DNA from: Chiloscyllium plagiosum
Lineage: Eukaryota
Direction of reading: 5' to 3'
DNA length: 64,000 nucleotides
Assembly: GCF_004010195.1 (NCBI RefSeq)
Contig: NC_057718.1
Span: 56,805,166 to 56,869,165, forward strand
Position 1 is the stretch's first letter. Every line of letters starts with the position of its first letter. The translations under genes and the position numbers were made by a program. The notes beneath the pieces are model-generated. The model was not told the DNA's origin and searched no databases. It saw only the letters and a program-made list of their open reading frames with translations. Below, one piece after another: positions 3,789-64,000 of the stretch.

Positions 3789-6647
3789 CATCCCCTTTGT
3801 TGTCGCCACCACAGCCACTTCCGCCTCATAAACATCAACTATGCCACATGTCCCACCAATTCCGCCCCTTTTGTTGCCACCACCGCAGCCACTTCTGCCC
3901 CCACCATCACCTATGCCATGCATTCTGTCACATTCGCACTCGTAACTTCCACCGTCGCACCCACTTCCGCTCCCACTGACGCCACTCACCTGAACACCGC
4001 CGACAGAATCGCCTATGACACACCCCCCGCGGATCCTACAGTCACCACCTTCACCCCCCAATTCCCGCGGTGAGCGTTACTTCCGGAAATGACGTCACCC
4101 CTGGTCCCTCTACTACCACTCCCACTTCAGTTAGTCTCCACCCCCACTCCCAGCTCCAGCCCAACATCAAGTCCTAGCTCCCAGCCCTGCCAAGTCTTTA
4201 CCATCCCCTGAGACCTACCCTCATTGAGGACGAACAATGAGTCCGCAGCAACGACCTTACCTTCATCCCAGTCTGCTCCCAGATCAACAAATTCAACACG
4301 CATTGTGACATCGAACACTTCAGCTGCCTTCAGGCTTACTTTTTCCACCAAGACTTCTGCCCACCTTCCGAGGACCCCTTCTCCCGCCTCCAACACACCC
4401 CACCTGGACACACCGTGCCGATCTGTCATCTGCTCTCAATCTCTTTATTTCCAAATGCCGCCGGACACTGACTGCCTCAACCTGTCCACCTCCCCCCACC
4501 CACTCCAACCTCTCACCCTTGCAACTCACAGCCCTCTACTCCCTTTACTCCAAACCCAACCTCTCCATCAAACCAGCAGACAAGGGGGTGCACAGTGGTA
4601 GTCTGGCGCACTGACATCTACATTGCTGAAGCCAGGCGCCAACTCAAAGACACCTCCTCCTACTGCCCCCTCGACCACAACCGCACCTCCCATCACCAAA
4701 CCATCATCTCCGAGACTGTACAAAACCTCATCACTTCAGGAGATCTCCCACCCACAGCTTCCAACCCCACAGTTCAGGAACTCCGCATCGCCCAGTTCTA
4801 CCTCCTACACAAGTTCCACAAACCTGACTACCCCAGCTGACCCATCATCTCGATCTGCTCTTGCCCCACCAAACTCATCTCCACATACATCAATACTGTC
4901 CTATCCCCTCAGTCCAGGAACTCCCCACATACTTTCGGGACACCACCCATGCCCTCCACCTCCTCAGAGACTTTAGTTTCCCTGGCCCTCAACGCCTCAT
5001 CTTTACCATGGACATCCAGTCCCTACACACCTCCATCCGCTATGACAAGGGTCTCCAAGCCCTCAGTTTCCTCCTCTCCCGATGTCCCCACCAACACTCT
5101 CATTTGTTTGACTGAACCGGTCCTCACCCTCAATAATTTCTCCTGTGAATCTTCTCACTTTCTTCAGATGAAAGGACTAGCCATGGGCCCCTGCATAGAC
5201 CCAGCTATGCCCGTCAGTTTGTCAGTTATGTGGAACAGTCCATCTTCCACCGTTACACCGGCACCATTCCCCACATTTTCCTCCGCTACATTGATGACTA
5301 TATCGGCGCCACTGCGTGCTACCACGAGGAGGCTGAACAGTTCATCAACTTCACCAACATATTCCACCCCAACCTTAAGTTCGCCTAGACCATCTCAGAC
5401 ACCAACCTTCTCTTCCTGGACCTCCCCATCTCCACCAAAGGTGACCGACTCAACACTGACAACTTCTACAAACCCACCGACTCCCACAGCTACCTAGATT
5501 AGACCTCTTCCCACTCTGCCTCCTGTAAAAGCACTATCCCTTATTCCTAAATCCTCCGACTTTGCTGCATCTGCTCCCAGGAGGACCAGTTCCACCACAG
5601 AACACACCAGATGGCCTCCTTCTTCAAAGACCACAATTTCCCCTCCCAAGTGGTTGCTGATGCCCTCCACTGCATCTCATCCACTTCCCGCACCTCTGCC
5701 CTCGAACCCCACGTCTCCAACTGCAACAAGAACAGACCTCTCCCACCCCCCTCCCCCATCCCGGTCCTCACCTTCCACCCTATCAGCCTCCGTATCTATT
5801 GCATCATCCTCCGCCATTTCTGGCCACCTACAAACGGACCCCACCACGAGAGATTTTTCCCTATCCACTTTCCGTAAAGACCATTCCCTCTCTCGTCAGG
5901 TCAACGACCCCCACCAACTCACTCTCCCCCACCCCGGCACCTTCCCCTGCCACCACAGGAATTGCAAAGCCTGCGCCCACACCTCCCCTCTCACCTCCAT
6001 TCAAGGTCCCAAAGGAGCTTTCCACAACAGAGTTTTACCTGCACTTCCACACGTCATTTACGGTATCCGTTGCTCCCAATGCTGTCTCCTCTACATTGGG
6101 GAGACAGGAAGCCTACTCGCAGACCGCTTCAGAGAACATCTCCAGGAAACCCACACCAACCAATCCCACCGCCCCGTGACTGAATACTTCAATTCTATCT
6201 CCCACTCCGCCAAAAACATGCAGGTCTTGGGCCTCCTCATTCGCCACTCCCTAACAACCTGACGCCTGAAGAAAGAACACCTCATCTTCTGCCTCATGAC
6301 ACTACAACCGCCCTGGCATCAATGTGGATTTCACCAGTTTCCTCATTTCCCTTCCCTCCACTTATCCTATCTACAACCTCCCTCATGTCCTGTCCTACCT
6401 GTCCACATTCCTTCCTACCAATCCGCTCCACTCTCCTCTCCGACCTAACATCATTGCTCACACGTCCATCTACCTATCGTACTCTCCGCTACCTTCCCTC
6501 CAACCCCACTGCCGCTCCCATTTATCTCACCATCCCCTTGGCTCACAGCCTCATTCCTGATGAAGGGCTTTTGCCCGAAATGTCGATTCTCCCGCTCCTC
6601 GGATGCTGCCTGACCTGCAGTGTTTTTCTAGCACCATTCTCTCGACA
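3789..6647 (+). mobile_element. Near-complete but decayed Penelope-like element: C-rich low-complexity 5' part, RT, GIY-YIG, 3' terminal repeat with hammerhead motif
   Basis: Peptides DKGG..VVW, FTMDIQSLHTSI, GLAMGPC, LRYIDDYIG (5281-5307), FPCHHRNCKAC and VIYGIRCSQCCLLYIGETG; many frameshifts. Inserted in a CR1 with aaagttc repeated at both junctions. Confidence 0.9.
6557..6584 (+). ncRNA. Minimal type I hammerhead ribozyme motif at the PLE 3' end
   Basis: CTGATGA-A-GGGC(TTTT)GCCC-GAAA-TG-TC: conserved core boxes and 4-bp helix II; helix III palindrome ACGT changed to ATGT, probably by CpG decay. Confidence 0.7.
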
Positions 6648-6900
6648 TTTAAAAGTTCTTACCTAATACCACCAAAATTGGTCTTACTCCAATTTAGAAC
6701 TTTAACTTTTTGATCAGTTCTACCCTTTTCAATAACTATTTTAAAACTAATAGAATTATGATCACTTGCCCCAAAGTGTTCTCCTACTGACACCTCAGTC
6801 ACTTGCCCTACCTTACTTAATCACGGCTTGCAGTATTTAAAAGCTCTATTTAGGTAGCATTCAAACACTGTACAGAATATAAATTTAATTTATATTATTC

Positions 6901-7114
6901 AAAAAACAAAGAACTGTGGATGTTGGAAATCTAAAACAACAACAGAAATAGCTGGAGAAATTCAGCAGGTCTGGCAGTATCTGCGGAAAGAAGCAAAGAC
7001 AAGGTTTCAGGTTCAGTGGCACTTCTTCAGAACCCTGAAACTTTAACTATGTTTTCTTTCCATACATGCTTTTAGACCTCCTGAGTTTCTCCAGCTACTT
7101 CTGTTTTTGTAACT
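6901..7114. mobile_element. Old fold-back PLE-terminus insertion with degenerate hammerhead motif (minus strand, about 7004-7030)
   Basis: Imperfect inverted arms (acagaaatagctggagaaattcagcagg / cctcctgagtttctccagctacttctgt); TSD tattattc at 6893-6900 / 7115-7122. Confidence 0.7.
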
Positions 7115-7453
7115 TATTATTCCTTGGGATATAGGTATCATGAACAAACCACACATTTATTACCAAGGTACTTCCAAAAAGCTGTCTGTTAGGGAGTTCA
7201 AAGATTTTGACCAGAAACAACGGAGGTACATAAGTCCAAGTCAGGATGGTTTACTTAGAAGGGGAATTTGGATGTGATACCGTTCCTTCTCCATAAGGAT
7301 ATATTAAATGCTCATTTGTAAAACACATATTTAAGATTACTTTGATTAAAAATCTTAAAACAGCTCTAATTTTTGAGAATTTCTATTCTTCAATTGCAGT
7401 TACTAGAACAGTAGATAATGGAAATGCTGCTGTTTAATTTGTTGAAAAGTTAC

Positions 7454-21464: not shown

Positions 21465-22020
21465 CCAGCAGTAGAATTAGGCCATTCGGCCTATTGCGTC
21501 TGCTCTGCAATTTCATCATGTTTGATACATTTCTCAACCCCATTTTCCTGCCTTGTCCTTGCAACTTTTGATGCCTTAGCCATCAAAAACCTATATTCTA
21601 TGGTAATGAGTTCCACAGATTCACCAGCCCCTGGCTGAAGAAATTCTGCACAAGACAGTTCTAAAGACGTTGTCCCTTCATTCTGAGGTGGTGCTCTTGG
21701 GTCCTCACCTCTCCTACTAGTGGAAATATCGTCTCCACATCCAGCCTAACCTGGATTCTGTAATTTTCAATTAGATCCCTCCCTCATCTTTCAGCTCCAT
21801 TCAGCACAGACTCAGAGTCCTCAACTGCTCCTCACATGACAAGTCCTTCATCCCTGGTATCATTCTTGTAAGCCTCATCTGGACACCCTCCATCCCCAGC
21901 ACATCTTTCCTTGGATACACCACCCAAAACTGCTCTTAAATTTCCAAATGCAGTCTAACCAGAGCATTACACAGCCTCTTGTCTTCTCACCCTTTTGAAA
22001 AGAATACTAATATTACATTT

Positions 22021-22236
22021 TTGAAACTTTATTGCTGGAACAGCACAGCAGGTCAGGCAGCATCCAGGGAACAGGAGATTCGACGTTTCGGGCACAGGCC
22101 CTTCCTCATTCCCGAGGAAGGGCCTGTGCCCGAAACGTCGAATCTCCTGTTCCCTGGATGCTGCCTGACCTGCTGTGCTGTTCCAGCAATAAAGTTTCAA
22201 CTTTGATCTCCAGCATCTGCAGACCTCACTTTCTCC
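22021..22236. mobile_element. Fold-back PLE-terminus insertion: perfect 87-bp inverted arms (22021-22107 / 22114-22200), 6-nt spacer, 36-nt unpaired tail
   Basis: Arms compared base by base, 87/87; 15-bp TSD actaatattacattt at 22006-22020 / 22237-22251; hammerhead-like motif in each arm. Confidence 0.92.
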
Positions 22237-22910
22237 ACTAATATTACATTTGCCTTCCTAATTGTGAAATTAACCTGTATGTTAACCTGAAGAGCATCCT
22301 GAACTAGGACTCCCAATTCCCTTTGTGCTTCAAATTTCCGAAGCTTTTATCCATTTAGAAAATAGAAAAGCTTCTCTTCTGCCTACTAAAGTGCATAAGC
22401 TCATATTTTCCCACATTGTATTGCATCTGCTACTTCTCTGCTCACTCTTGTAGTCTGCCCAAGTCATTCTGCAGCCTTTCTGCTTCCTCAACACTGACCC
22501 CCTCCCATCTTTATGTAAACAACAAAGTTAGCAACAATGTCCCCAGTTTCTTCATCCAGATCGTTAATGTATAATGTAAGTAGTTGCGGTCCCCAACATG
22601 GGCCTCTGTGGAACTGCACTAGTCACTGATTGCTGTCCCGAAAAATACTCTTTCATCCTTATCTCTGCCTTGTCAATCAGCCAATCCTCAATTCATGCCA
22701 GTACCTTGCCCCTGACACCATGGACCCTTATCTTATTTAAGTCTCCTGTGCAGCTCCTTTCCGGAAATTCAAATAGTCCACTGGCTCTACTTTGTCTAAT
22801 TTGCTCATTAACTCCTCAAAGAATTCTAACAGATTTGTCACACGTAACCTCCCCTTGGACGAAACTGTTTTGACTCAGCCCTATGTTACCATGTACTTCC
22901 AAATACTCTA

Positions 22911-23129
22911 GGAGAAAGTGAGGACTGCAGATGCTGGAGATCAGAGCTGAAAAATGTGTTACTGGAAAAGCGCAGCAGGTCAGGCAGCATCCAAGGAGCA
23001 GGAGAATCGATGTTTCGGGCATAAGCCCTTCTTCAGGATTCCTGAAGAAGGGCTTATGCCCGAAACATTGATTCTCCTGCTCCTTGGATGCTGCCTGACC
23101 TGCTGCGCTTTTCCAGCAATACATTTTTC
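22911..23129. mobile_element. Fold-back PLE-terminus insertion with back-to-back hammerhead motifs (minus 23009-23036, plus 23042-23069)
   Basis: 16-bp TSD acttccaaatactcta at 22895-22910 / 23130-23145; CTGAAGAAGGGCTTATGCCCGAAACAT on both strands. Confidence 0.92.
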
Positions 23130-23579
23130 ACTTCCAAATACTCTACAAGCTCATCCTTACCAACAATCAGGTGAGACTAACCAGTGTATAGTTTCCTGTC
23201 TTCTGCCTCCCTCACTTTTTAAACAGGGGTGTCTCAAACATTTTCCAGTGATTCCTGAAAGATCACCACAATGCCTTTACAGTCTCCTCAGCTATCTCTT
23301 CCAGAACCCTAGGGTTAGCCCATCTGGTTCAAGTGATTTATCCAGCTTCAGATCTTTCAGCTTCCCCAGCACCTTCTTCCTTAGTGATAGCAATGACAGT
23401 CATCCATGCCTCTTGACACTCTTGGAGTTCTGGTATGCTGCTGGTGTCTTCCACTGTGAACACCGATGCAAAGCACCTATTCAATTCTGCCGCCATTTTT
23501 TTCCTCATTTATCAGTAGCCTAATTTCCACACTTACCTTTTAGATATCTAAAAATAGCCTCTTGCAATATCCTGTTAAA

Positions 23580-31139: not shown

Positions 31140-32190
31140 GTGTAAGTAACTTTGCAGATGACACCAACATTAGTGGTGTAGTAGTGAAGAAGGTTCTTTT
31201 AAGAGTAAAGACGGTTTGAGGAAAGACGGATGGAGTTTAATTTAGATAAATGAGAGGTGTTGCATCATGGTAAAGCAAATCAGGACAAAATGTATTCACT
31301 TAATAGTTGGATCCTAAAGGGTGTTGCTAAACAAAGAGACCATGGGGTGGAGGCTCATAGTTCCTTGAAGGTGGAGTTTCAGGTAGATAGGGTAGAGAGC
31401 TGAAAATGTGTTGCTGGAAAAGCGCAGTAGGTCAGGCAGCATCCAAGGAACAGGAGAATCGACGTTTCGGGCATAAGCCCTTCTTCAGGAAACCTTCTTC
31501 GGGCTTATGCCCGAAACATCGATTCTCCTGCTCCTTGGATGCTGCCTGACCTGCTGCGCTTTTCCAGCAACACATTTTCAGCTCTGATCTCCAGCATCTG
31601 CAGCCCTCACTTTCTCCTCGAAGATAGGGTAGAGAGGAAAGATTTGGTATGCTTCCCTTTATTGGTCAGTGCATGGAGTATAGGAGCTGGGATATCATGT
31701 TGCGACTTTGGTGAGGCCACTTTGGAATACTGTATTCAATTCTGGTCTTGCTGATAAAAGAAATATATTATTAAAGTTGAAAGGGTTCAGAAAAGATTTG
31801 CTGGGGTCAGAGGACTTGATCTACAGTGAGAGGCTGAATAGGCTGGAGTATTTCCCCTGGAGCATTGGAGGCTGAGGGGTGACCTTATAAAAGCATGATA
31901 GGCATGAATGGGGTGAATTGCTACGGTCTTTTTCCTAGGGTAGGGCAATCCAAAACTAGAGGGCAACATTTTCATGCAGTGGGTAGTGCATGTACGTAAT
32001 GAGGTGCCAGAGGACGTAGTGGAAGCTGATACAAAAGACATCTAGAGGGGTACATGCATATGAAGGCTTTAGAGGGATAGATGCCAAATGCTGGCAAATG
32101 GGACGAGATTAATTTAGGATAGCTGATCTGCATAGACGAGTTGCACTGAAGGGTCTGTTTCTGTGCTGTACCACCCAATGACTATGGATT
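31140..32190 (+). mobile_element. CR1 3' fragment (FADDT motif to 3' tail) hosting a hairpin insertion
   Basis: tttgcagatgacacc (FADDT), LEYCIQFWS and tail gggtctgtttctgtgctgta..atgact. Confidence 0.8.
31400..31621. mobile_element. Fold-back PLE-terminus insertion with a consensus hammerhead motif on the minus strand (31461-31488)
   Basis: 15-bp TSD agatagggtagagag at 31385-31399 / 31622-31636; minus strand CTGAAGA-A-GGGC(TTAT)GCCC-GAAA-CG-TC. Confidence 0.9.
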
Positions 32191-33808: not shown

Positions 33809-33976
33809 AGAATACAGCTTTGATTAGACTGCATTTGGAATATTGGATCCGGTCAGAGCACCAAATCACATGAAGAATATTCTGAAACAGAAACAAGGTG
33901 CTGAAGAATATTCATGTGATTTGGCGCTCAGACCGAATCCAGTATTCCAGATGCAGTCTAACCAAAGCTGTATTCT
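33809..33976. repeat. 66-bp inverted repeat (33809-33874 / 33911-33976), 60/66 identical, 36-nt spacer
   Basis: Direct base comparison; arm sequence looks CR1-derived (ALVRLHLEY-like). Confidence 0.9.
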
Positions 33977-34554
33977 TTGTACAGAGAGGGGAGCAATGTT
34001 AATGCTTTGAATCAAAATAATCTTCATTGAAAAAGAATGTTGTGGAGAGGAGTGCAGTTCAGACATGCCAGAATGATATTGCGACTTAGCAGATTACATT
34101 AGGAATATAAAAATATAGAGTGGTTTAATTGATGGTTAAAATGAATAAAGTATGTGACTGAGTAGAATTAAAGAAACTGTTCCCTTTGATCAGGTAGTTC
34201 AGAACAACTGTGCATACTTTAACATTCTGAAATGTTCTTTTTTCTAGTCATGATTTTCCATTATTGTAATGGATAGGATCTTCAATTGTGAAGGGCTGAT
34301 TGCCCCTACTAAGGGGAAATATTAGCCCTTCATTTTGATCCCAGACCCACAATAGGATTCCAATTGTCTCCGCCCTTCACCCCACCAGGTTTTCTGTTGA
34401 GAAATCATCCTCAAATGATTTTCGTGACCTCTAGCATCATGCTACCACAAACTTTCCATTTCCTCCCTTCCCCTTCTGCCCTTACAATGAGCAGGTTATC
34501 CTCTGTGACAGCCTGGTAACTTAATCACCCAGATAACAAAAATAAGTATCTTAC

Positions 34555-35625
34555 CTCTCTTAATGTCACTAGAGTCTTTTTATCAATAGTTGCCTGTTTA
34601 ACTAGCTCTTTATTGTCTTTTTCTAAATCTTTCAGTCGTCCATGAAGATCTTTAAACTTGTTGATTTCTTTCACAAGTAATTTGTTTTCTTTTTCAAGAT
34701 TAGAAATCGTCATGTTGTTTTCATCCAGTGTTGAGTCCTTGATCTCAGTCTGTTGGCGCAATCTCCTATTTTCTTTCTCAAGCTGCTTCTTGTCTTTCTC
34801 CAGTTGGACATTCTCTTGCTCCAGCAGCTTGTGTTCCATCTCTAATTGTAACAACCGTTTGCTGGAAATTTTTAATTCTTCCAGATTTCTTTGTAAGCTC
34901 TGGTTTTCGGTTTCTAAGTCCTGTAATTCATTTTCCAGCTGATTAATTTTTTTGTTGCTATTTTCTAAAGTCTTTTGGAGCCTATGATTTTCTAAATCAA
35001 GCCCTTGATAACTTACTTCCAAACGTTCAGTTTTCTTATTACAAGCCTTCAAGAGATCCAGGCTCTTGTTTAATTGTTCTTTTTCATTTTCCAGTTCTTT
35101 GTTTTCTAGTTCTAACTGTGCCAATTTGACACTATTAGACTTCAAACTCTCCACTGTCCTCCTCAATTGTAAATTTTCTTCATCAAGTTGGTTGTTTTCT
35201 TTCTCTAATATATCTAACTGCAGTGTAAGGTTTTTCAAGCCATCTAAAGTCTTTTTCAGCTTTCTGTTTTCCACTTCTAGATCAGAGTTCTCCTGTTCCA
35301 AGACTTCGACTTTTTCACATGTAATTATTAGAGCAGTAACCTTCTTCTGCAACTGTTCATTTTCTCTTTCCAAGCGGCTCAAAAGAGTCTCAAGTTCCTT
35401 TGCCCTTTCTCCTTTCTCTTTATAGTGTTCCAATTCCTTTCGGATTTGTTTCTTCTCCAACTCTAATTTGTTCAGTTTGCCACTAGTTTCCCTAATAGAT
35501 TCATGTAGAATTTTGTTTTCTTTCTCGATATCTTTCACTTTAGCTTCTGCACTGATTTGTGCTCGTTGCCTCAGGGATGCAATGGTCTGATTCAAATGTT
35601 CATTTTCCTGCTCCAATACTTTGAT
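34555..35625 (-). CDS. CCDC88A: Girdin (CCDC88A) large coiled-coil exon, 1071 nt / 357 codons, phase 0/0 (IKVLEQENEHLNQTIASLRQRAQISAEAKVKDIEKENKILHESI...ATIDKKTLVTLRE)
   Basis: Uninterrupted heptad-rich ORF; acceptor tctag|ATC (AG at 35627-35626); donor GAG|gtaag (34554-34553). Motifs EQENEHLNQT, KTERLEVSYQGLD and KTLVTLRE are Girdin-like. Confidence 0.96.
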
Positions 35626-38049: not shown

Positions 38050-39175
38050 AAGTGTTCCCGAGAATGCTGTGGAAAGCTAGAGAAGTGTCTGCTGGAACTC
38101 TTGCTGAGATATTTGTATCATCGGTAGTCACAGGTGAAGTGCCGCAAGACTGGAGGTTGGCAAACGTGGTGCCACTGTTTAAGAAGGGCAGTAAAGACAA
38201 GCCAGGGAACTACAGACCAGTGAGCCTGACCTCACTGGTGGGCAAGTTGTTGGAGGGAATCTTGAGGGACAGGATGTACATCTATTTGGAAAGGCAAGGA
38301 CTGATTCAGGATAGTCAACATGGCTTTGTGCGAGGGAAATCATGCCTCACAAACTTGATTGAATTTTTTGAAGAAGTAACAAAGAAGATTGATGAGGGCA
38401 GAGCAGTAGATGTGATCTGTACGGACTTCAGTTAGGCGTTCGACAAGGTTCCCCGTGGGAGACTCATTAGCAAGGTTAGATCTCATGGAATACAGGGAGA
38501 ACTAGCTCCAAGTTAGAAGACAGACGGTGGTGGTGGAGGGTTGTTTTTCCGACTGGAGGCCTGTGACCAGTGGAGTGCCACAAGGATCGGTGCTGGGTCC
38601 TCTACTTTTTGTCATTTACATAAGTGATTTGGATGCAAGCACAAGAGGTATAGTTAGTAAGTTTGCAGATGACAACAAAATTGGAGGTGTAGTGGACAAC
38701 GAAGAGGGTTACCTCAGATTACAACAGGATCTGGACCAGATGGGCCAATGGGCTGAGAAGTGGCAGATGGAGTTTAATTCAGATAAATACGAGGTGCTGC
38801 ATTTTGAGAAAGTAAATCTTAGCAGGACTTATACACTTAATGGTAAGGTGCCAGGGAGTATTGCTGAACAAAGACCTTGGAGTGCAGGTTCATAACTCCT
38901 TGAAAGTGGAGTCACAGTTGGATAGGATAGTGAAGAAGGCGTTTGGTATGTTATCCTTTATTGGTCAGAGTATTGAGTACAGGAGTTGGGAGGTCATGTT
39001 ACGGCTGTTCAGGACATTGGTTAGGCCACTGTTGGAATATTGTGTGCAATTCTGGTCTTCCAATCGGAAAGATGTTGCGAAACTTGAAAGGGTTCAGAAA
39101 AGATTTACAAGGATGTTCCCAGGATTGAAGGATCTGAGCTACAGGGAGAGTCTGAACAGGCTGAGGCTGTTTTCA
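38050..39175 (+). mobile_element. Relatively young CR1 RT fragment
   Basis: VPQDWRLANVVPLFKKG..PGNYRPVSLTS, QHGFVRGKSCLTNLIEFFE, GVPQGSVLGPLLF, FADDNK; few disruptions. Confidence 0.92.
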
Positions 39176-39962
39176 ATAGATAATAGGTGCAGGAGTAGGC
39201 CATTCTGCCCTTCGAGCCTGCACCACCATTCAATATGATCATTGCTGTTCATCCTTAATCAGTATCCTGTTCCTGCCTTATCTCCATAACCCTTGATTTC
39301 ACTATCCTTGAGAGCTCTATCCAACTCTTTCTTAAATGAATCCAGAGACTGGGTTTCCACTGCCCTCTGGGGCAGAGCATTCCACACAGCCACCACTCAA
39401 TGGGTAAAGAAGTTTCTCCTCATCTCTGTCCTAAATGGTCTACCCCGTATTTTTAAGCTGGGTCCTCTAGTTCGGCACTCACCCATCATCGGAAACATGT
39501 TTCCTGCCTCCAGAGTGTCCAATCCTTTAATAATCTTATATGTCTCAATCAGATCCCCTCTCAGTCTTCTAAACTCAAGGGTATACAAGCCCAGTCACTC
39601 CAGTCTTTCAGCGTAAGGTAGTCCCGCCATTCCAGGAATTGACCTCGTGAACCTACGCTGCACTCCCTCAATAGCCAGAATGTCTTTCCTCAAATTTGGA
39701 GACCAGAACTGCACACAATACTCCAGGTGTGGTCTCACCAGGGCCCTGTACAGCTGCAGAAGAACCACTTTGCTTCTATACTCAATCCCTCTTGTTATGA
39801 AGGCCAGCATGCTATTAGCCTTCTTCACTACCTGCTGTACCTGCATGCTTACCTTCATTGACTGGAAAACACCCAGATCTCTTTGTACTGCCCCTTTACC
39901 TAAATTGATTCCATTTAGGTAGTAATCTGCCTTCCTGTTCTTGCCACCAAAGTGGATAACCA
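39176..39962 (-). mobile_element. Young CR1 3' fragment in opposite orientation
   Basis: LLQLYRALVRPHLEYCVQFWSP and LEFRRLRGDLIETYKII..RTEMRRNFF, followed by a 3' UTR ending at about 39176. Confidence 0.9.
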
Positions 39963-40319: not shown

Positions 40320-42728
40320 AGTTTTAAGATACTCATTGGTAAGGATAACATCAGTCCTCAGATGAAAGAGTGTGAAAATGGTGGAAGGTGAACTACAAAA
40401 ATATTAGGCAGGAACTAGAGAATTTTGACTGGGAGGTGGCTGTTTGAGGGAAAATCCACAACGGACACGTGGGAGTATTTCAAACGGCAGTTGATAGAGG
40501 TTCAGGAGTGACATGTATCTCCAAGGATGAAGAATAGGTATGGCAAGTTAGATGAATCTTGCATTACCAGGGATGTTATGACTTTGGTCAAAAAGAAAAA
40601 GGATACATAAGATCCAGGAGGATGGGAACTGATGAAGTCCTTGAAGGAAAGTAGAAAAGAACTTAAATAAAGAATTTGAAGGACAAAAAGGGATCATGAA
40701 AAGACCTTAGCAAACAGGATTAAGAGAATCCCAAGGCTTTATAAAAAGCAAGAGGGTAGCTAGGGAAAGGGTTGGGCCAGTCAAGGACAAAGGAAGGAAT
40801 CTACGTGTGGAGCCAGAAGAGGCAGGTGAGGTCCTAAATAAGTACTTTGTGTCAGTTTTCATCAAACAGAAGGAATTGGTGGACGATAATCTCAGGGAAG
40901 GTAATGCCAAATTTCTAAGGCAAGTTGCTATTAAAAAGGAAGAGATGTTGTCATCTTATTAAGATAGATGAGTCCCTGAGTCCTGATGTGATCCCAGAAT
41001 ATTGAGAGAGGCAAGAAAACAAATTGCTGGAGCAGTAACAGACATCGTTGCATCCTCTTTGGCCTCAGGTGAGGTCCCAGATGACTGGAGAATAGCCAAT
41101 GCTGTCTCGTTGTTTAAGAAACGTAGTAGGGATAATCCAGGAAATTATAGGCTTGTATGCCTCACATCAGTGGTAGGAAAATTACTGGAAAAGATTCTTA
41201 GGGACAAGATCTACACGTATTTGGAAGCAATTTAGAGATAGACAGCATTGTTGTGTGCAGGGGAGGTCATGCCTCACTAACTTGATTGAGTTGTTTGAGG
41301 AGGTGACAAAGATGATTGATGAGGGAAAAACAGCTGATGTTGTCTACATGGACTTCAGTAAAGCTTTTGACAAGGTCCCTCTTGGCAGACTGGTACAAAA
41401 GCGGAGGTCCCATGGTATTAGGGGTGAGCTGGCAAGGTGGATACAGAACTAGTTCAGTCATAGGAAACCGAGGGTAGTGTTGGAAGGATGTTTTTTGGAA
41501 ATGGAGGGCTGAAACTAATGGTATTCCACAGGGGTCAGTGCTGTTCGTGGTCTACATAAATGATTGGGAGAAAAACGTGACTGGTCTAATTAGTAAGTTT
41601 GTGGAGGATGCAAAGGTTGGTGGAGTTGCAGATAGTGAGGAGGATTGTCAGAGGATACAGCAGGATATGGATTAGTTGGAGGCATGGGCAGAAAAACAGC
41701 AGATGGAGTTTAATCTGGACAAATGTGGGGTGATGCATTTTGGAAGGTCAAGGGCAGGTGTAAATTATGCAGTGAACGGCAGAGACATATGTCGAGGGAT
41801 CTGTTTGTGCAGGTCCACAGATCCCTGAAGATGGCAGCGCAGGTAGCTAGGATAGTAAAAAAAGGCCTATGGCATGCTTGCCTTCTTTGAAAATGACATT
41901 GAGTATCAGGATAAGCAAGTTATGCTGCAGCTTTATAGCACTTTAGTTGGGCCGCACTTGGAATATTGCATACAGTTCTAGTCACCATACTACCAGAAGG
42001 ATGTGGATGCTGTAGAGAAGTTGCAGAAAAGGTTTACCAGTATGGTTCCTGGTATGGGGAATTTTAGCGATGAAGAAAGGTTGGAAATTCTGAGTTTGTT
42101 TTCACTAGAATGCAGGAAGCTGAAGGGTGACCAGATAGAAGTCTATAAGATTGTGAATGGCATGGATAGAGTGGAAAGCATGAGACTTTTTCCTAGTGTG
42201 GGGAGGTCAATTACTAGGGGACATAGGTTCAGGGTTGGATGGGGATGCAATTTTGAGAGAAAGTGAGGACTGCAGATGCTGGAGATCAGAGCTGAAAATG
42301 TGTTGCTGGAAAAGCGCAGCAGGTCAGGCAGCATCCAAGGAGCAGGAGAATCGACGTTTCGGGCATGAACTCTTCTTCAAGTACACATTTTCCTGAAGAA
42401 AGGCTCACGCCCGAAACGTCGATTCTCCTGCTCCTTGGATGCTGCCTGACCTGCTGCGCTTTTCCAGCAATACATTTTCAGTGCAATTTTGAGAGATGTG
42501 CAAGTCAACTTTTTCATTTAAAAGGCCGTAAGTACCCAGAACACACTGCCAGAGATGATGGTGGAAGCAGACACAATAGCAGCTTTCAAGAAGCACCTGG
42601 ACGAATACATAAATTGGAAGTGAATATGGGGATATGGATCCTGTAAGGGAGGACAGATTTAATACAGAAGGGCAATATCTGTTGGCACAGGCTTGGAGGG
42701 CCAAAGTGCCTCTTCCTGTGCTGTATTA
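40320..42728 (+). mobile_element. Decayed CR1 ORF2 (linker, RT, 3' end) hosting a hairpin insertion; an older CR1 fragment follows at about 42730-43825
   Basis: VPDDWRIANAVSLFKK..NPGNYR, SCLTNLIE..DVVYMDFSKAFDKVP and 3' tail gcctcttcctgtgctgta. Confidence 0.88.
42261..42481. mobile_element. Fold-back PLE-terminus insertion (hammerhead motif plus 42393-42420; degenerate copy on the minus strand)
   Basis: 15-bp TSD tgcaattttgagaga at 42246-42260 / 42482-42496; inverted arms. Confidence 0.9.
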
Positions 42729-44165: not shown

Positions 44166-44351
44166 GAGGTTCTGGATTAGTGGTGCTGGAAGAGCACAGC
44201 AGTTCAGGCAGCATCCGAGGAGCAGTAAAATTGACGTTTCGGACAAAAGCCCTTCATCAGGAAGGACTGATGCTGCCTGAACTGCTGTGCTCTTCCAGCA
44301 CCACTAATCCAGAATCTGGTTTCCACCATCTGCAGTCATTGTTTTTACCTA
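44166..44351. mobile_element. Fold-back PLE-terminus insertion within the Gypsy 5' LTR; hammerhead motif on the minus strand (44233-44260) in the unpaired centre
   Basis: 11-bp TSD tctgagcaggc at 44155-44165 / 44352-44362; minus strand CTGATGA-A-GGGC(TTTT)GTCC-GAAA-CG-TC. Confidence 0.88.
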
Positions 44352-48789: not shown

Positions 48790-48934
48790 TAAAAATCACA
48801 ACACCAGGTGGTTGCAAGGAGCAGTGCTCTGAAAGCTAGTGCTTCCAAATAAACCTGCTAGACTACAACCTGCTGTTGTGTGAGTTTTACCTTTGTACAC
48901 ACCAGTCCAACACCGACTCCTCCAACTCACATCT
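48790..48934. mobile_element. Second-family ('AGCT') PLE-terminus insertion, hammerhead motif 5'-truncated
   Basis: aaggagcagtgctctgaaagctagtgcttcc..aaacctg; imperfect TSD aataaattWgt at 48779-48789 / 48935-48945. Confidence 0.7.
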
Positions 48935-56211: not shown

Positions 56212-57049
56212 AGGAGAAAGTGAGGACTGCAGATGCTGGAGTACCAGAGTTGAAAAATGTGGTGCTGGAAAAACACATCAGGCCAGACAGCATCAGAGGA
56301 TCAGGAGAATCGACATTTCGGGCATAAGCCCTTCTTCAGGAATGAGGTTGGTGTGCCAGGCGGGCTGAGATAAAAGGTAGGGGGGAGGGAATTTGGGGGA
56401 GGGGCACTGGGAATACAATAGGTGGAAGGAGGTGAGGGTGAGGGTGATAGGCCGGAGAGGTCGGGAAGAAGATTGCAGGTCAAGAGGGCGATGCTGAATC
56501 CGAGGGTTGGGACGGAGATAAGGTGGGTGGAGGGGAAGTGAGGAAGCTGGAGAAATCTACATTCATCCCATGTGGTTGGAGGGTTCCTAGGCGGAAGATG
56601 AGGCCCCGTGGCTGAACACTTTAGCTCCCCCTCCCACTCTGCCAATGACATGCAGGTCCTTGGCCTACTCCATCGCCAGACCCTGGCCACACGACGCCTG
56701 GAGGAAGAGCGCCTCATCTTCCGCCTAGGAACCCTCCAACCACACGGGATGAATGTAGATTTCTCCAGCTTCCTCATTTCCCCTCCCCCCACCTTATCTC
56801 AGCCCCAACCCTTGGATTTAGCACCGCCCTCTTGACCTGCAATCTTCTTCCTGAACTCTCCGCCCCCACCCTCTCTCCGGCTTATCACCCTCACCTCCTT
56901 TCACCTATAATATTCCCAGCACCCCTCCCCCTTATCTTTTATCTCAGCTCGCTTGGCACACCAGCCTCATTCCTGAAGAACGGCTTATGCCTGAAACGTC
57001 GATTCTCCTGCTCCTCGGATGCTGCCTGGCCTGCTGTGTTTTTCCAGCA
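56212..57049. mobile_element. Large fold-back PLE 3' fragment (arms of about 350-450 bp) with hammerhead motifs at 56312-56339 (-) and 56973-57000 (+)
   Basis: Right arm encodes a GIY-YIG C-terminus (VAEHFSSPSHSANDMQVLGL..RRLEEERLIFRLGTLQPHGMNVDF); left arm is its reverse complement; TSD ccaaatgaYtcagttg at about 56193-56208 / 57050-57065. Confidence 0.9.
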
Positions 57050-57317
57050 CCAAATGACTCAGTTGATTTAAAAGCAAATCTATACTACCTTAACGAAGGC
57101 AAGTGCAGGTGTGTGCTTTGTTCCAAATGCAAATCCTGAGTTGCTGATAGCCTGTACTCACCTCATTCCAGATTGCATCACCCCTCTCATATTCCCTTCA
57201 AATAGAACAATTTTGCTGACTCTTATTTCTTCAAGAACCCTGTGTGAATTGCTCATTTTAAAAAAATGCCCTGCTTTCATCGTTTCAGTCAATTTTTGAA
57301 AACCTAAGGTCTCTCTT

Positions 57318-61129: not shown

Positions 61130-61340
61130 TGTTTTGAAGATGTCGGTGTTGAACTGGGGTGTACAAAGTTAAAAATCACACAACAACAGGTTATAGTCCA
61201 ACAGGTTTAATTGGAAGCGCTAGCTTTCAGAGCGCCACTCCTTCATCAGGTCGTTGTGGGGCCTGGTGAAGGAGCTGTGCTCGGAAAGCTAGTGCTTCCA
61301 ATTAAACCTGTTGGACTATAATCTGATGTGTGATTTTTAA
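61130..61340. mobile_element. Second-family ('AGCT') fold-back insertion; hammerhead motif minus 61221-61249, degenerate plus copy at about 61263-61291
   Basis: Inverted arms (gttaaaaatcacaca..ttatagtccaacaggtttaattggaagc); TSD ctctatcYaaatca at 61116-61129 / 61341-61354; minus strand CTGATGA-A-GGAGT(GGC)GCTCT-GAAA-GC-TA. Confidence 0.85.
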
Positions 61341-63487
61341 CTCTATCTAAATCAAAATCATATGCAACTGGAAGAGTTTTACATTTAAACAAAAGTCATC
61401 CAGCTGGTTGAGCAAATTGCCAAACTAGTGTTGAAACTGAGGCATTATTGCAGTTATTCACAAGTCTCTTCAATTTAATCCCAGGTCACATGAACAAAAA
61501 GACAATGTTTAACTTGCTGCACCAGTCCAACCTCTGATTATGAAGGCGCTATTATTTTAACAAAGCTCCTATGTTTCTTTCCCTTTGATTTAATAAAAAT
61601 CATATTTCTGCAAAGGTTTTCGATGTATAGTCATTTCCGTTCATTGCTAGACCATGGATACATATTAATTTTGCAAACTTTGAAAGCTGTCTGATTGTTC
61701 TCAACAAAATAACATTAAGAAGGTTCAAATAAAGCAGTACAAAGTCCAACTTAGCAACCTCTTCCAGCATAGCATTTCTCGGACTCTGGCCTTTTGAGCA
61801 TTCCCTTTCTCTCCATTACTGGAGCCCATGATTTAGCCATTTTGGGCACAGAATTTCCACCTTCCTTTACTAACCTTTTTAAACTCATGCTTGATCAAGG
61901 TTTTGGAGATGTATTTACTATCACTTGTATGGCTTGATTGGCATTTAATTAATCCTATGCCTTTGTGAAATGCTGTTCAAAATTATTTTATGCTAACAGG
62001 ACTAAATGACTGCGATTGTTGTTGGCACGGAGTTCTTCAGGAGGATTTCAAAACTGATATTTTGTGGCGCCTCATTATAAAACACACAGAATTCTCTGCT
62101 CACCATTTATCAAGTGAAGATTGATTTTCGGTAACCTACAAAATTTAAGTTATAACTGTTCACCTGATGTGAATAACTACAAATTGATAACATGTAAAGC
62201 ACACGTTAACATAGATGACTGCTGCTGCCTTCGAAAGGAATATAGCAAACTATAAAAAGGAAGAGTACTTTCAATACTATAACCAGAGGCTTCAGTTTGC
62301 AATTAATAACGGCACATTTTGTTAAGCCAAGTGATATCACAATTCACACTTACTCCTATTTCCAAGCGTGATCCACTTTTGAGAGGGCTTGACAGAATAA
62401 ATGCTGAACGTTTGACTCCTTGTGGAGAGACTAGGACTGGAGGACATAATCTCAGAATAATGCGTCACCCATTTAAGGAAGAAATTAAATGGAATTTATG
62501 GCAGTAAATTTGTGGCATTCGGGGTCGTTAAGCATATTCAAGGCTGACACAGTCAATTTTTTTTTTAAATCAGTAAGGGAATAGTGTGTTATGGAGATAA
62601 GGCAGGAAAATGGAGTTGAAGATCATCAGATCAACCATCATCTAACTAAATGGGTGGAGTAGAACTGGTGGATGGAATGGGCTACTTCTGCTCCTACACA
62701 TTATGACTATCTTATGATATTACTGCTTTAGCCACTGATGAACTGAGACAGAGGTGATGCTGCGGAGGTGGAAATAGGTGGGCCTAGTTCATGGCATGAA
62801 ATGAGGTCAAAAATAAGGTTCAAACGTGACATCAAGGTTGCAAACACTCTTGACACGGTCCTAACCAATGATGTACGATCAAGCAATTTTAATAGTTATG
62901 GGGCAGTTGACAGGGCTGTTCCTTGTCACCATTGCTTTTCACACTAGTGATCAAACCTGCTGGTGAAGGCAATATGCAGGGATCCCAATTAACCACTCCA
63001 GAAGTGGGGACTTAGTCACATAAGATTGCACTGTATGAGGATGACATTCTCGTCTTCTTATCAACCCCAACAGTCTTAGTGCTACACCTAATACAATGTA
63101 TCAATCTATTTGGTGGCTTATCAAGTCATAGAGATGTACAGCATGGAAACAGACCCTTCGGTCCAACCCGTCCAGGCCGACCAGATATCCCAACCCAATC
63201 TAGTCCCACCTGCCAGCACCCGGCCCATATCCCTCCAAATCCTTCCTATTCCATATACCCATCCAAATGCCTTTTAAATGTTGCAATTGTACCAGCCTCC
63301 ACCACTTCCTCTGGCAGCTCATTCCATACACGCACCACCCTCTACGTGAAAAAGTTGCCCCTTAGGCTTCTTGGGTTATAAGATCAGTTTTGCGAAGTCA
63401 GAGGCCATGCCCATGGGTGGTCTCCCGAGAGTGCCAGATCCTGAGGACGGATCTTGGTTCCCTTTTAGAGAGCTTTCTCCACTTATG

Positions 63488-63592
63488 ATTTGGAGATGCC
63501 ATTGTTGGACTGATGAAGGAGCGTCGCTCCGAAAGCTAGTGTACTTCCGATTAAACCTGTTGGACTATAACCTGTTGTTGTCTGATTTTTAA
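63488..63592 (+). mobile_element. 105-bp second-family mini-insertion carrying an intact hammerhead core
   Basis: TSD ctttctccacWtatg at 63473-63487 / 63593-63607; sequence shared with 61130-61340. Confidence 0.85.
63510..63538 (+). ncRNA. Minimal type I hammerhead ribozyme motif, second family
   Basis: CTGATGA-A-GGAGC(GTC)GCTCC-GAAA-GC-TA: both core boxes intact, perfect 5-bp helix II, palindromic AGCT helix III. Confidence 0.75.
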
Positions 63593-64000
63593 CTTTCTCC
63601 ACATATGTATATTTATTACTCCTATTTTTGATCGGCTATTTAAAACCAATTTTGCCCATTTATTCGATAGAATCAAGCAGGACCTTTGTAGATGGGTGGC
63701 ACTTCCGATCTCTTGTTTAGATCAGATAGCCCTCATCAAAATGAGTATTCTGCCCCACCTGTTGTATCCTATGCGAATGCTTCCTCTACTTTTTACTAAG
63801 CAAATATTTAGAAGACTTAGCAGCTGGTTTAATTCTTTTATCTGGTATTGCAAGTGGCCTCTAATTAAATTGACTAAATTGCAGTTACCTTACACGAAGG
63901 GTCTGTTTCCATGCTGTACATCTCTATGACTCTATGACTGGGACAAATGGGCCTCCCAGATATAAAAAGCTACCAGTTAAGCTCGTTGCTATCTTATGTG

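Follow-up and report, generated by a model that had tools for sequence, protein, structure and literature searches.

A 64,000-nucleotide stretch of the Chiloscyllium plagiosum genome (hereafter the window) contains ten fold-back insertions, most of them very short, each consisting of two head-to-head arms derived from a Penelope-like element (PLE). We consider it very likely that these hairpins are dead-end by-products of Neptune-like PLEs, left by abortive integration. Their arms stop preferentially at one point, the 5' edge of a hammerhead ribozyme motif carried by the element, and this break point probably marks the start of the element RNA.

Fold-back insertions in the window

All nine insertions listed by the initial annotation, from 6901 to 61130 and including one of ~840 bp at 56212, are present, and a tenth was found at 63488. 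The claimed TSDs were also found; they measure 8-17 bp across these nine copies, some with mismatches. Positions within arms are numbered from C3 of the hammerhead core (position 0). In window coordinates, the features are:

4841..6636, + strand: decayed long parent-type copy with broken RT/endonuclease frames (RT-likeness read by eye), pLTR, hammerhead (core at 6557) and short 3' end
6901..7110, no strand: old fold-back, family D; 8 bp TSD at 6893-6900 / 7115-7122, read by eye, the TSD script having found none
22021..22236, no strand: fold-back, subfamily A2; exact 15 bp TSD at 22006-22020 / 22237-22251; short inverted arm 22021-22107, junction at ~22105-22113, tailed arm up to 22236; no intact hammerhead core remaining
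22911..23129, no strand: fold-back, subfamily A1; 16 bp TSD at 22895-22910 / 23130-23145; left arm tailed and inverted, right arm short
23009..23036, - strand: minimal type I hammerhead core, left arm of the fold-back at 22911
23042..23069, + strand: minimal type I hammerhead core, right arm of the fold-back at 22911, CpG-decayed at 15.2-16.2
31400..31621, no strand: fold-back, A1; templated 9 nt insert at the junction; 15 bp TSD
42261..42481, no strand: fold-back, A1; 10 nt insert at the junction; exact 15 bp TSD
44166..44351, no strand: fold-back, family B, asymmetric, arm starts -3 and +45; TSD with an exact 11 bp core
48790..48931, no strand: fold-back, family C, lopsided, with an inverted arm of ~22 nt and a tailed arm from +6; degenerate 14 bp TSD; missed by BLAST pairing and found by eye
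56212..57051, no strand: long fold-back, A4, ~840 bp; 17 bp TSD with 2 mismatches; usual architecture, with arm starts at -262 and at or beyond -368, extending into the ORF end
56605..56802, + strand: PLE GIY-YIG endonuclease, C-terminal remnant (P0001)
61130..61340, no strand: fold-back, family C; 14 bp TSD with 1 mismatch
63488..63590, no strand: fold-back, family C, lopsided; absent from the initial annotation

The window also contains inverted pairs of other repeats at 33809-33976, 38928-39830 and 63124-63931, which we take to be CR1-like LINE pieces and a SINE-like end; the first of these is a short fold-back with neither a hammerhead nor a detectable TSD. At 34528-35625 (- strand) lies an open coiled-coil frame of 366 aa, whose top atlas match is a 'DAPLE fragment' with a score of 0.93, which the tool itself ranks as weak. 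Presumably the frame resembles Girdin/CCDC88A. A gene of the CCDC88 family probably contributes this frame as one of its large exons, in which case the window hairpins would be intronic.

Abundance and architecture

Besides the window, the census covered 77 stretches of 10 kb each, taken at even intervals from the same genome and amounting to 749,870 non-N bases of an assembly of 3.56 Gb in 101,977 contigs. Native reference copies served as search probes, and head-to-head arms were paired into fold-backs. The 304 arms found in the 77 stretches and the window resolved into 75 head-to-head fold-backs and 154 solo copies. Sixty-six of the fold-backs lie in the ~750 kb sample, or one per 11.4 kb; the abundance of about one per 7 kb claimed initially thus holds within the window but not across the 77 stretches. 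Extrapolation from large scaffolds only gives an estimated ~313,000 fold-backs genome-wide (bootstrap range, 237,000-394,000). All fold-back counts are lower bounds, because the lopsided copy at 48790 escaped pairing. Long fold-backs in particular are undercounted, because N gaps in the assembly fall inside long inverted PLE copies, as at loci L111, L112, L053, L055 and L070; just 10 of the 278 sampled arms abut N.

The fold-backs span 103-789 bp, and 68 of the 75 fall between 103 and 231 bp. A TSD score of at least 9 was obtained for 48% of them (36/75), as against none of 300 random position pairs, and the TSDs of these high-scoring copies are 11-19 bp long with a mode of 14-16 bp. Of 30 young A2 copies, 29 have an exact TSD of 12-17 bp. 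In families A-C, one arm is long, carrying the 30-40 nt tail, and the other short in 58 of 64 fold-backs. The reading that the initial annotation had preferred, in which PLE insertion aborts time after time and leaves an inverted terminal copy plus a tail, is supported.

The parent element

Upstream, the arms continue into the 3' end of an ORF that in family A encodes a GIY-YIG endonuclease with a CCHH motif and a CX4CxxC linker. CCHH GIY-YIG motifs were seen in L108, L104 and L111; the Pfam GIY-YIG match is weak, falling short of the 22.6-bit cut-off at 22.0 bits (E=2e-4). Visual inspection of L092 shows RT motifs in a frame of 202 aa that precedes the endonuclease. A search for a full-length parent ORF among these copies recovered none intact: both '764 aa' frames are N gaps, as 'long open frames' from the genome search at PLE copies can be, and the candidate full-length parents L205-L207 carry internal deletions or a truncation. 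The arm itself is a piece of the pLTR / 5' UTR; beyond the tail the sequence leads to the ORF ATG at +162. The outer ends of the arms lie at two fixed sites, centred at about +85-90 and +122-127 and mostly within +74..+94 and +119..+128, and solo copies end at the short as well as the long site. Copies in which the pLTR is accompanied by tandem or inverted 5'-truncated copies are present.

Neptune and Nematis PLEs have a CX2-5CxxC linker ahead of the GIY-YIG domain, according to excerpts of PMC8557442. The CX4CxxC linker is present in family A and absent from family E1. On motif content, the parent elements of the hairpins appear to be Neptune-like EN+ PLEs, a clade label to be read with the linker being common to Neptune and Nematis, and the linker-less family E1 appears Poseidon-like.

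Several further features of these elements were observed. In an E1 copy (L076:9026-9633, - strand) the ORF stop codon lies inside hammerhead helix II and an ATG at the helix start, the same placement as reported for PAc, a Poseidon element of Anolis. An AATAAA/ATTAAA hexamer occurs 3' of the hammerhead in all three C references (in C1 and C2 at +38..+40) and in A2 (at +76), and is absent from the other A/B references; it is possibly a poly(A) signal, which would give the pLTR a U3-R-U5-like layout. The tail end of A1/A4 (L205:480-500) has a pyrimidine tract followed by AG, resembling a splice acceptor, ~35 nt before the ATG; Penelope has an intron in its 5' UTR (excerpts of PMC8557442). Adjoining a PLE copy at L111:4644-5946 are broken pol-like frames of an LTR retroelement.

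Hammerhead cores

We searched the window and the 77 stretches for the core motif CUGANGA...GAAA-NN-UH. Helix II of at least 4 bp is present in 63 of the 96 motifs found, against a shuffle mean of 3.2, and its pairs are swapped between families (G-C, U-A, A-U and C-G). By core conservation and helix II covariation, then, the hammerhead cores are real, as the initial annotation had held; their cleavage is a prediction. An Rfam scan of the window gave 13 matches at E<=1, none to a hammerhead and all under the gathering scores; these below-threshold matches were to miRNA models.

The description of the insertions as carrying back-to-back hammerheads proved overstated. Both cores are intact in only eight of the 75 fold-backs and a single one in 27; the other 40, copy 22021 among them, keep none. 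Folding the RNA of five window copies gave one long hairpin with the core paired out in 10 of 10 cases, so the ribozyme is expected to be masked by this structure.

A break point at the 5' edge of the hammerhead

Among sampled arms of families A-C that reach +10, 61 of 69 fold-back arms stop within -14..+10, as do 42 of 68 solo copies. The stop hazard of fold-back arms in this interval is 0.064 per nt, compared with 0.007-0.013 in the flanking bins. The inversion point was thus correctly placed at or beside the hammerhead core by the initial annotation, and its position with respect to the ribozyme is far from random. For families A and B alone the corresponding counts are 37/42 (fold-back arms) and 31/52 (solos). 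In well-kept A/B arms the mode is at -3 (11/62), which lies ~30 nt 5' of where cleavage is predicted (+28); the upstream edge of the distribution is sharp and its tail lies downstream. We had predicted that the family C edge would lie further upstream than that of A/B, but the difference is not significant (8/27 against 9/47 at <=-7; p=0.39).

These statistics leave aside families D, F and G (57 of the 278 sampled arms), whose references reach only 3 nt upstream, and the 17 stretches that also serve as references. In simulations, upstream-truncated pieces of A and C1 were mis-called into the peak in 2 of 320 cases, but C2 pieces whose own reference was withheld were mis-called in 63 of 64. Stop calls for solo C-family copies are less safe for this reason; those for fold-back arms are safer, because the partner arm bounds them physically.

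The same point is used by copies that extend to the ORF side. The ORF-bearing test set comprised 35 of the 40 loci best matching the sequence past the tail (36 arms), and 12 of the 14 arms reaching +10 stop within -14..+10. Because both solo and ORF-bearing copies use it, the break is a property of the parent PLE template and not of the hairpins. Two of the candidate parents, L206 and L207, each contain two tandem units, starting at -2/-5 or -8/-8; the first unit (from -2 or -8) enters the ORF, and the second (from -5 or -8) reaches the tail end. Followed the way reverse transcription proceeds, the pattern would be a run-off, a jump into the RNA body and a second run-off. At L170, three units of one complex insertion all seem, by eye, to start near -116, which suggests a single template whose one 5' end was reached repeatedly.

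All six A/B references have an Inr-like YYANWYY with its A at -4 and TTATCT at -34..-36, and all three C references have TATAAA at -38..-40; these promoter motifs are short and were matched post hoc.

Family E1 behaves differently. The copies examined are 39 of the 40 best matches (query itself excluded), all young and Poseidon-like. Our prediction of a stop peak near -22 failed: among the 37 copies reaching +10, only four stop within -35..+10, and two of these within -14..+10, even though E1 carries both a hammerhead and TATAAA at -53. Universal run-off at the TSS throughout the PLE clades thus fails in this family. The result also shows that a stop needs more than a hammerhead and that the peak is no product of the method. 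The hot spot depends on the family; more efficient jumping, or read-through templates, in E1 would be our guesses. Older E3 copies start at -5..+6, but the E3 reference extends only to -5, so that edge may simply be the limit of the reference.

Junctions and arm relationships

Breakpoint pairs are almost all unique, with 63 distinct among 64 in the unbiased set. The junctions of 32 well-kept copies comprise 10 overlaps, 3 blunt joins and 19 inserts, several of which copy neighbouring arm sequence. In a set of 30 loci chosen for resembling copy 22021, and so biased by the query, 20 distinct junctions were found, and four junctions recur (6, 4, 2 and 2 times); the recurrence is explained by the bias of the set and by these being the likeliest joins of ends at -3/-4. 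Some of the junctions in L001-L030 allow a reading as a small stem-loop (stem 5 bp, loop 4 nt).

The two arms of a fold-back belong to the same subfamily. In 17 young A/B copies they disagree at 1 of 95 diagnostic sites, against 45 expected from pooled A/B arms, a pool that also mixes ages; the concordance covers A/B only. Divergence between arms ranges from 0 to 23%, and rare variants common to both arms are few (4/64 in A/B and 0/43 in C), which gives no sign of gene conversion between arms or of hairpin lineages. The start positions of the two arms show a weak correlation (rho 0.26, p=0.04, n=63). Very short inverted pieces that do not start at +88 were found at L037 and L057.

RNA reads

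Of the RNA runs, X21 gave no matching reads, and only X20 was informative. X20 is a single-cell poly(A) data set, a type that is ill suited to locating 5' ends, and 2% of it yielded 775 reads. Within that 2%, reads run in both directions with no pile-up of RNA starts or ends. At L041:5072 and L041:5018, X20 reads of one direction only show A>G (8/148 and 5/45, against 0/86 and 0/35), and the change is nearly absent from X15 contigs; position 5072 is part of the core GAAA of the hammerhead. This is a hint of A-to-I editing, in reads that stem from many copies.

Discussion

The explanation that we favour, and think probably correct as a whole, is that the hairpins are run-off cDNAs from the RNA 5' end, joined pairwise. 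The break (-14..+10, mode -3/-4) would be the 5' end of the uncleaved template RNA, and we judge this part likelier true than false. The RNA would start at the Inr-like motif (A at -4), 30-32 nt below the TATA-like box, with helix I as its first bases, and each arm would be a 'strong-stop' cDNA of 90-130 nt. A reverse transcriptase that then jumps template would generate a longer tandem copy, and one that does not would leave a solo copy. Where both target strands are primed, two run-off cDNAs would be joined head to head, by microhomology or by end joining with templated inserts, leaving a TSD of 14-16 bp. The product is predicted to be inert as a ribozyme, the antisense arm pairing with the core on either strand.

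In LTR retroelements, minus-strand strong-stop DNA is a short cDNA that is primed internally and extended as far as the 5' end of the RNA. L1 twin priming produces inversions through priming on both target strands, with the inverted part internal and the 3' end not duplicated. By analogy, the hairpins may resemble both, but here there is no tRNA primer, PBS or integrase. In the excerpted text of PMC11167929, the PLE protein of Poseidon PAc cuts and extends both target strands, acting as a predicted dimer; the two positions where reverse transcription begins lie inside the RNA and delimit the tail; the main substrate is RNA that has not been cleaved; and hammerhead mutations leave in vitro insertion unchanged. 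The two fixed outer ends in our copies match the two in vitro start sites of PAc, which supports our explanation. The TSS of Drosophila virilis Penelope lies inside the pLTR (excerpts of PMC8557442).

How the two arms come to be joined is less certain, and we lean only slightly towards priming at both ends over snap-back. In a self-priming scheme, the end of one cDNA (or antisense RNA) folds back and primes a copy of it, the tail being removed from one side by the endonuclease. Such a mechanism was proposed for head-to-head palindromes of rotifer PLEs (excerpts of PMC3846280). It would fit the near-complete agreement of the arms at diagnostic sites, the weak correlation of arm starts and the stem-loop reading of some junctions, and it (or templated insertion) accounts better for the very short inverted pieces at L037 and L057. 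However, it needs a second step to account for the short end being fixed, a site at which reverse transcription starts in vitro (excerpts of PMC11167929), and it sits poorly with solo copies that end at both sites and with inserted letters in 19 of 32 junctions. We regard self-priming as a credible but less probable route; as it concerns the joining only, it can go together with cDNAs that run off the 5' end of the RNA. The break itself might instead be set by the ribozyme, the reverse transcriptase dropping off after unfolding the hammerhead or a bound protein, or self-cleavage ending the template. The edge does coincide with the 5' strand of helix I (-4..-1), and the hazard at +26..+35 is slightly raised, both in fold-back arms (0.012 against 0.007-0.008) and in solos (0.009 against 0.002). 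Several of those solo calls are internal deletions or alignment ends, though, E1 has a hammerhead and no peak, and the hammerhead mutants of PAc have no effect on insertion in vitro, as excerpted from PMC11167929. Cleavage predicts a stop at +28, not -3, and the main peak leaves the ribozyme uncut; we have rejected hammerhead cleavage as the break point, and find a ribozyme-set break in general unlikely.

It would be very surprising if the hairpins were non-autonomous, retrozyme-like units that are transcribed and re-inserted whole. Four recurrent junctions among the 30 loci resembling 22021 are what such units might leave, but the unbiased set has 63 distinct breakpoint pairs among 64 copies. 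The hammerheads lie on opposite strands and not in tandem, two cores survive in only 8 of 75 copies, and the core is paired out in every fold. With junctions nearly all distinct, cores lost or masked and the break at the 5' edge of the ribozyme, the distinct class of ribozyme mini-elements envisaged by the initial annotation is unsupported. We give hardly any credence to an ordinary MITE or an assembly artefact, despite the terminal-inverted look of the copies and a short-read assembly with gaps at long palindromes. A MITE with a fixed junction and short TA-type TSDs is at odds with 63 of 64 distinct junctions and TSDs of 11-19 bp; the termini are variable and asymmetric, the centre varies, and the arms are continuous with a PLE ORF. 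An arm divergence of 0-23% is unlike mis-assembly.

Both halves of the object, the PLE fold-back architecture and the PLE hammerhead, are already in print. Complex insertions of EN+ PLEs (excerpts of PMC8557442, PMC3846280 and PMC8969392) show the same head-to-head inverted 5'-truncated copy, 30-40 bp tail at one end and long variable TSD. The copies described here differ in that the minimal form of ~100-230 bp dominates (68/75), at ~3x10^5 copies, and in having a preferred inner break point, which those excerpts do not describe. PAc likewise has two fixed outer ends ~35-40 nt apart and keeps an uncleaved hammerhead, but its ORF starts within the hammerhead and that of family A at +162 (excerpts of PMC11167929). 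The minimal hammerheads of metazoan PLEs in the excerpted part of PMC4209133 have the same core, bulged base before helix II and palindromic 15.2-16.2. Dual min-HHRs on opposite strands are known from Schistosoma at a distance of 100-700 bp (same excerpts), whereas in the fold-backs only 0-30 nt separate the cores, which the hairpin masks. Non-LTR retrozymes (excerpts of bioRxiv 10.64898/2026.07.22.740005) are also non-coding, derived from PLEs and equipped with a type I hammerhead, but they are tandem repeats with a hammerhead per unit, and the fold-backs are single inverted pairs with unique junctions. In the open literature (excluding Repbase, Dfam, subscription journals and supplements) we found no paper on the break-point hot spot or its strong-stop reading, nor any on a class of short PLE fold-backs in such genomes. 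The break point is thus the part that we did not find in print.

The origin of PLE pseudo-LTRs, inverted copies and tails has been called open (excerpts of PMC8557442 and PMC11167929). The sharp, family-dependent stop leads to a specific prediction, namely an RNA start at about -4, a strong-stop cDNA and a template jump. We tentatively suggest, with slightly more doubt than conviction, that Neptune-like PLEs run an LTR-like cycle, in which the RNA starts in the pLTR and the strong-stop cDNA must jump template for the body of the element to be copied; the ~300,000 hairpins would then be failed jumps on both target strands. If the explanation is right, the hairpins map PLE transcription start and RT start sites straight from DNA, and the divergence between arms dates each insertion. 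The elements are dead retrotransposon remnants that risk being misannotated as MITEs or miRNA precursors. If the explanation holds, introns would have been seeded with long dsRNA, much as by inverted Alu pairs in primates, and at about one fold-back per 11 kb this is a large potential source of intronic dsRNA.
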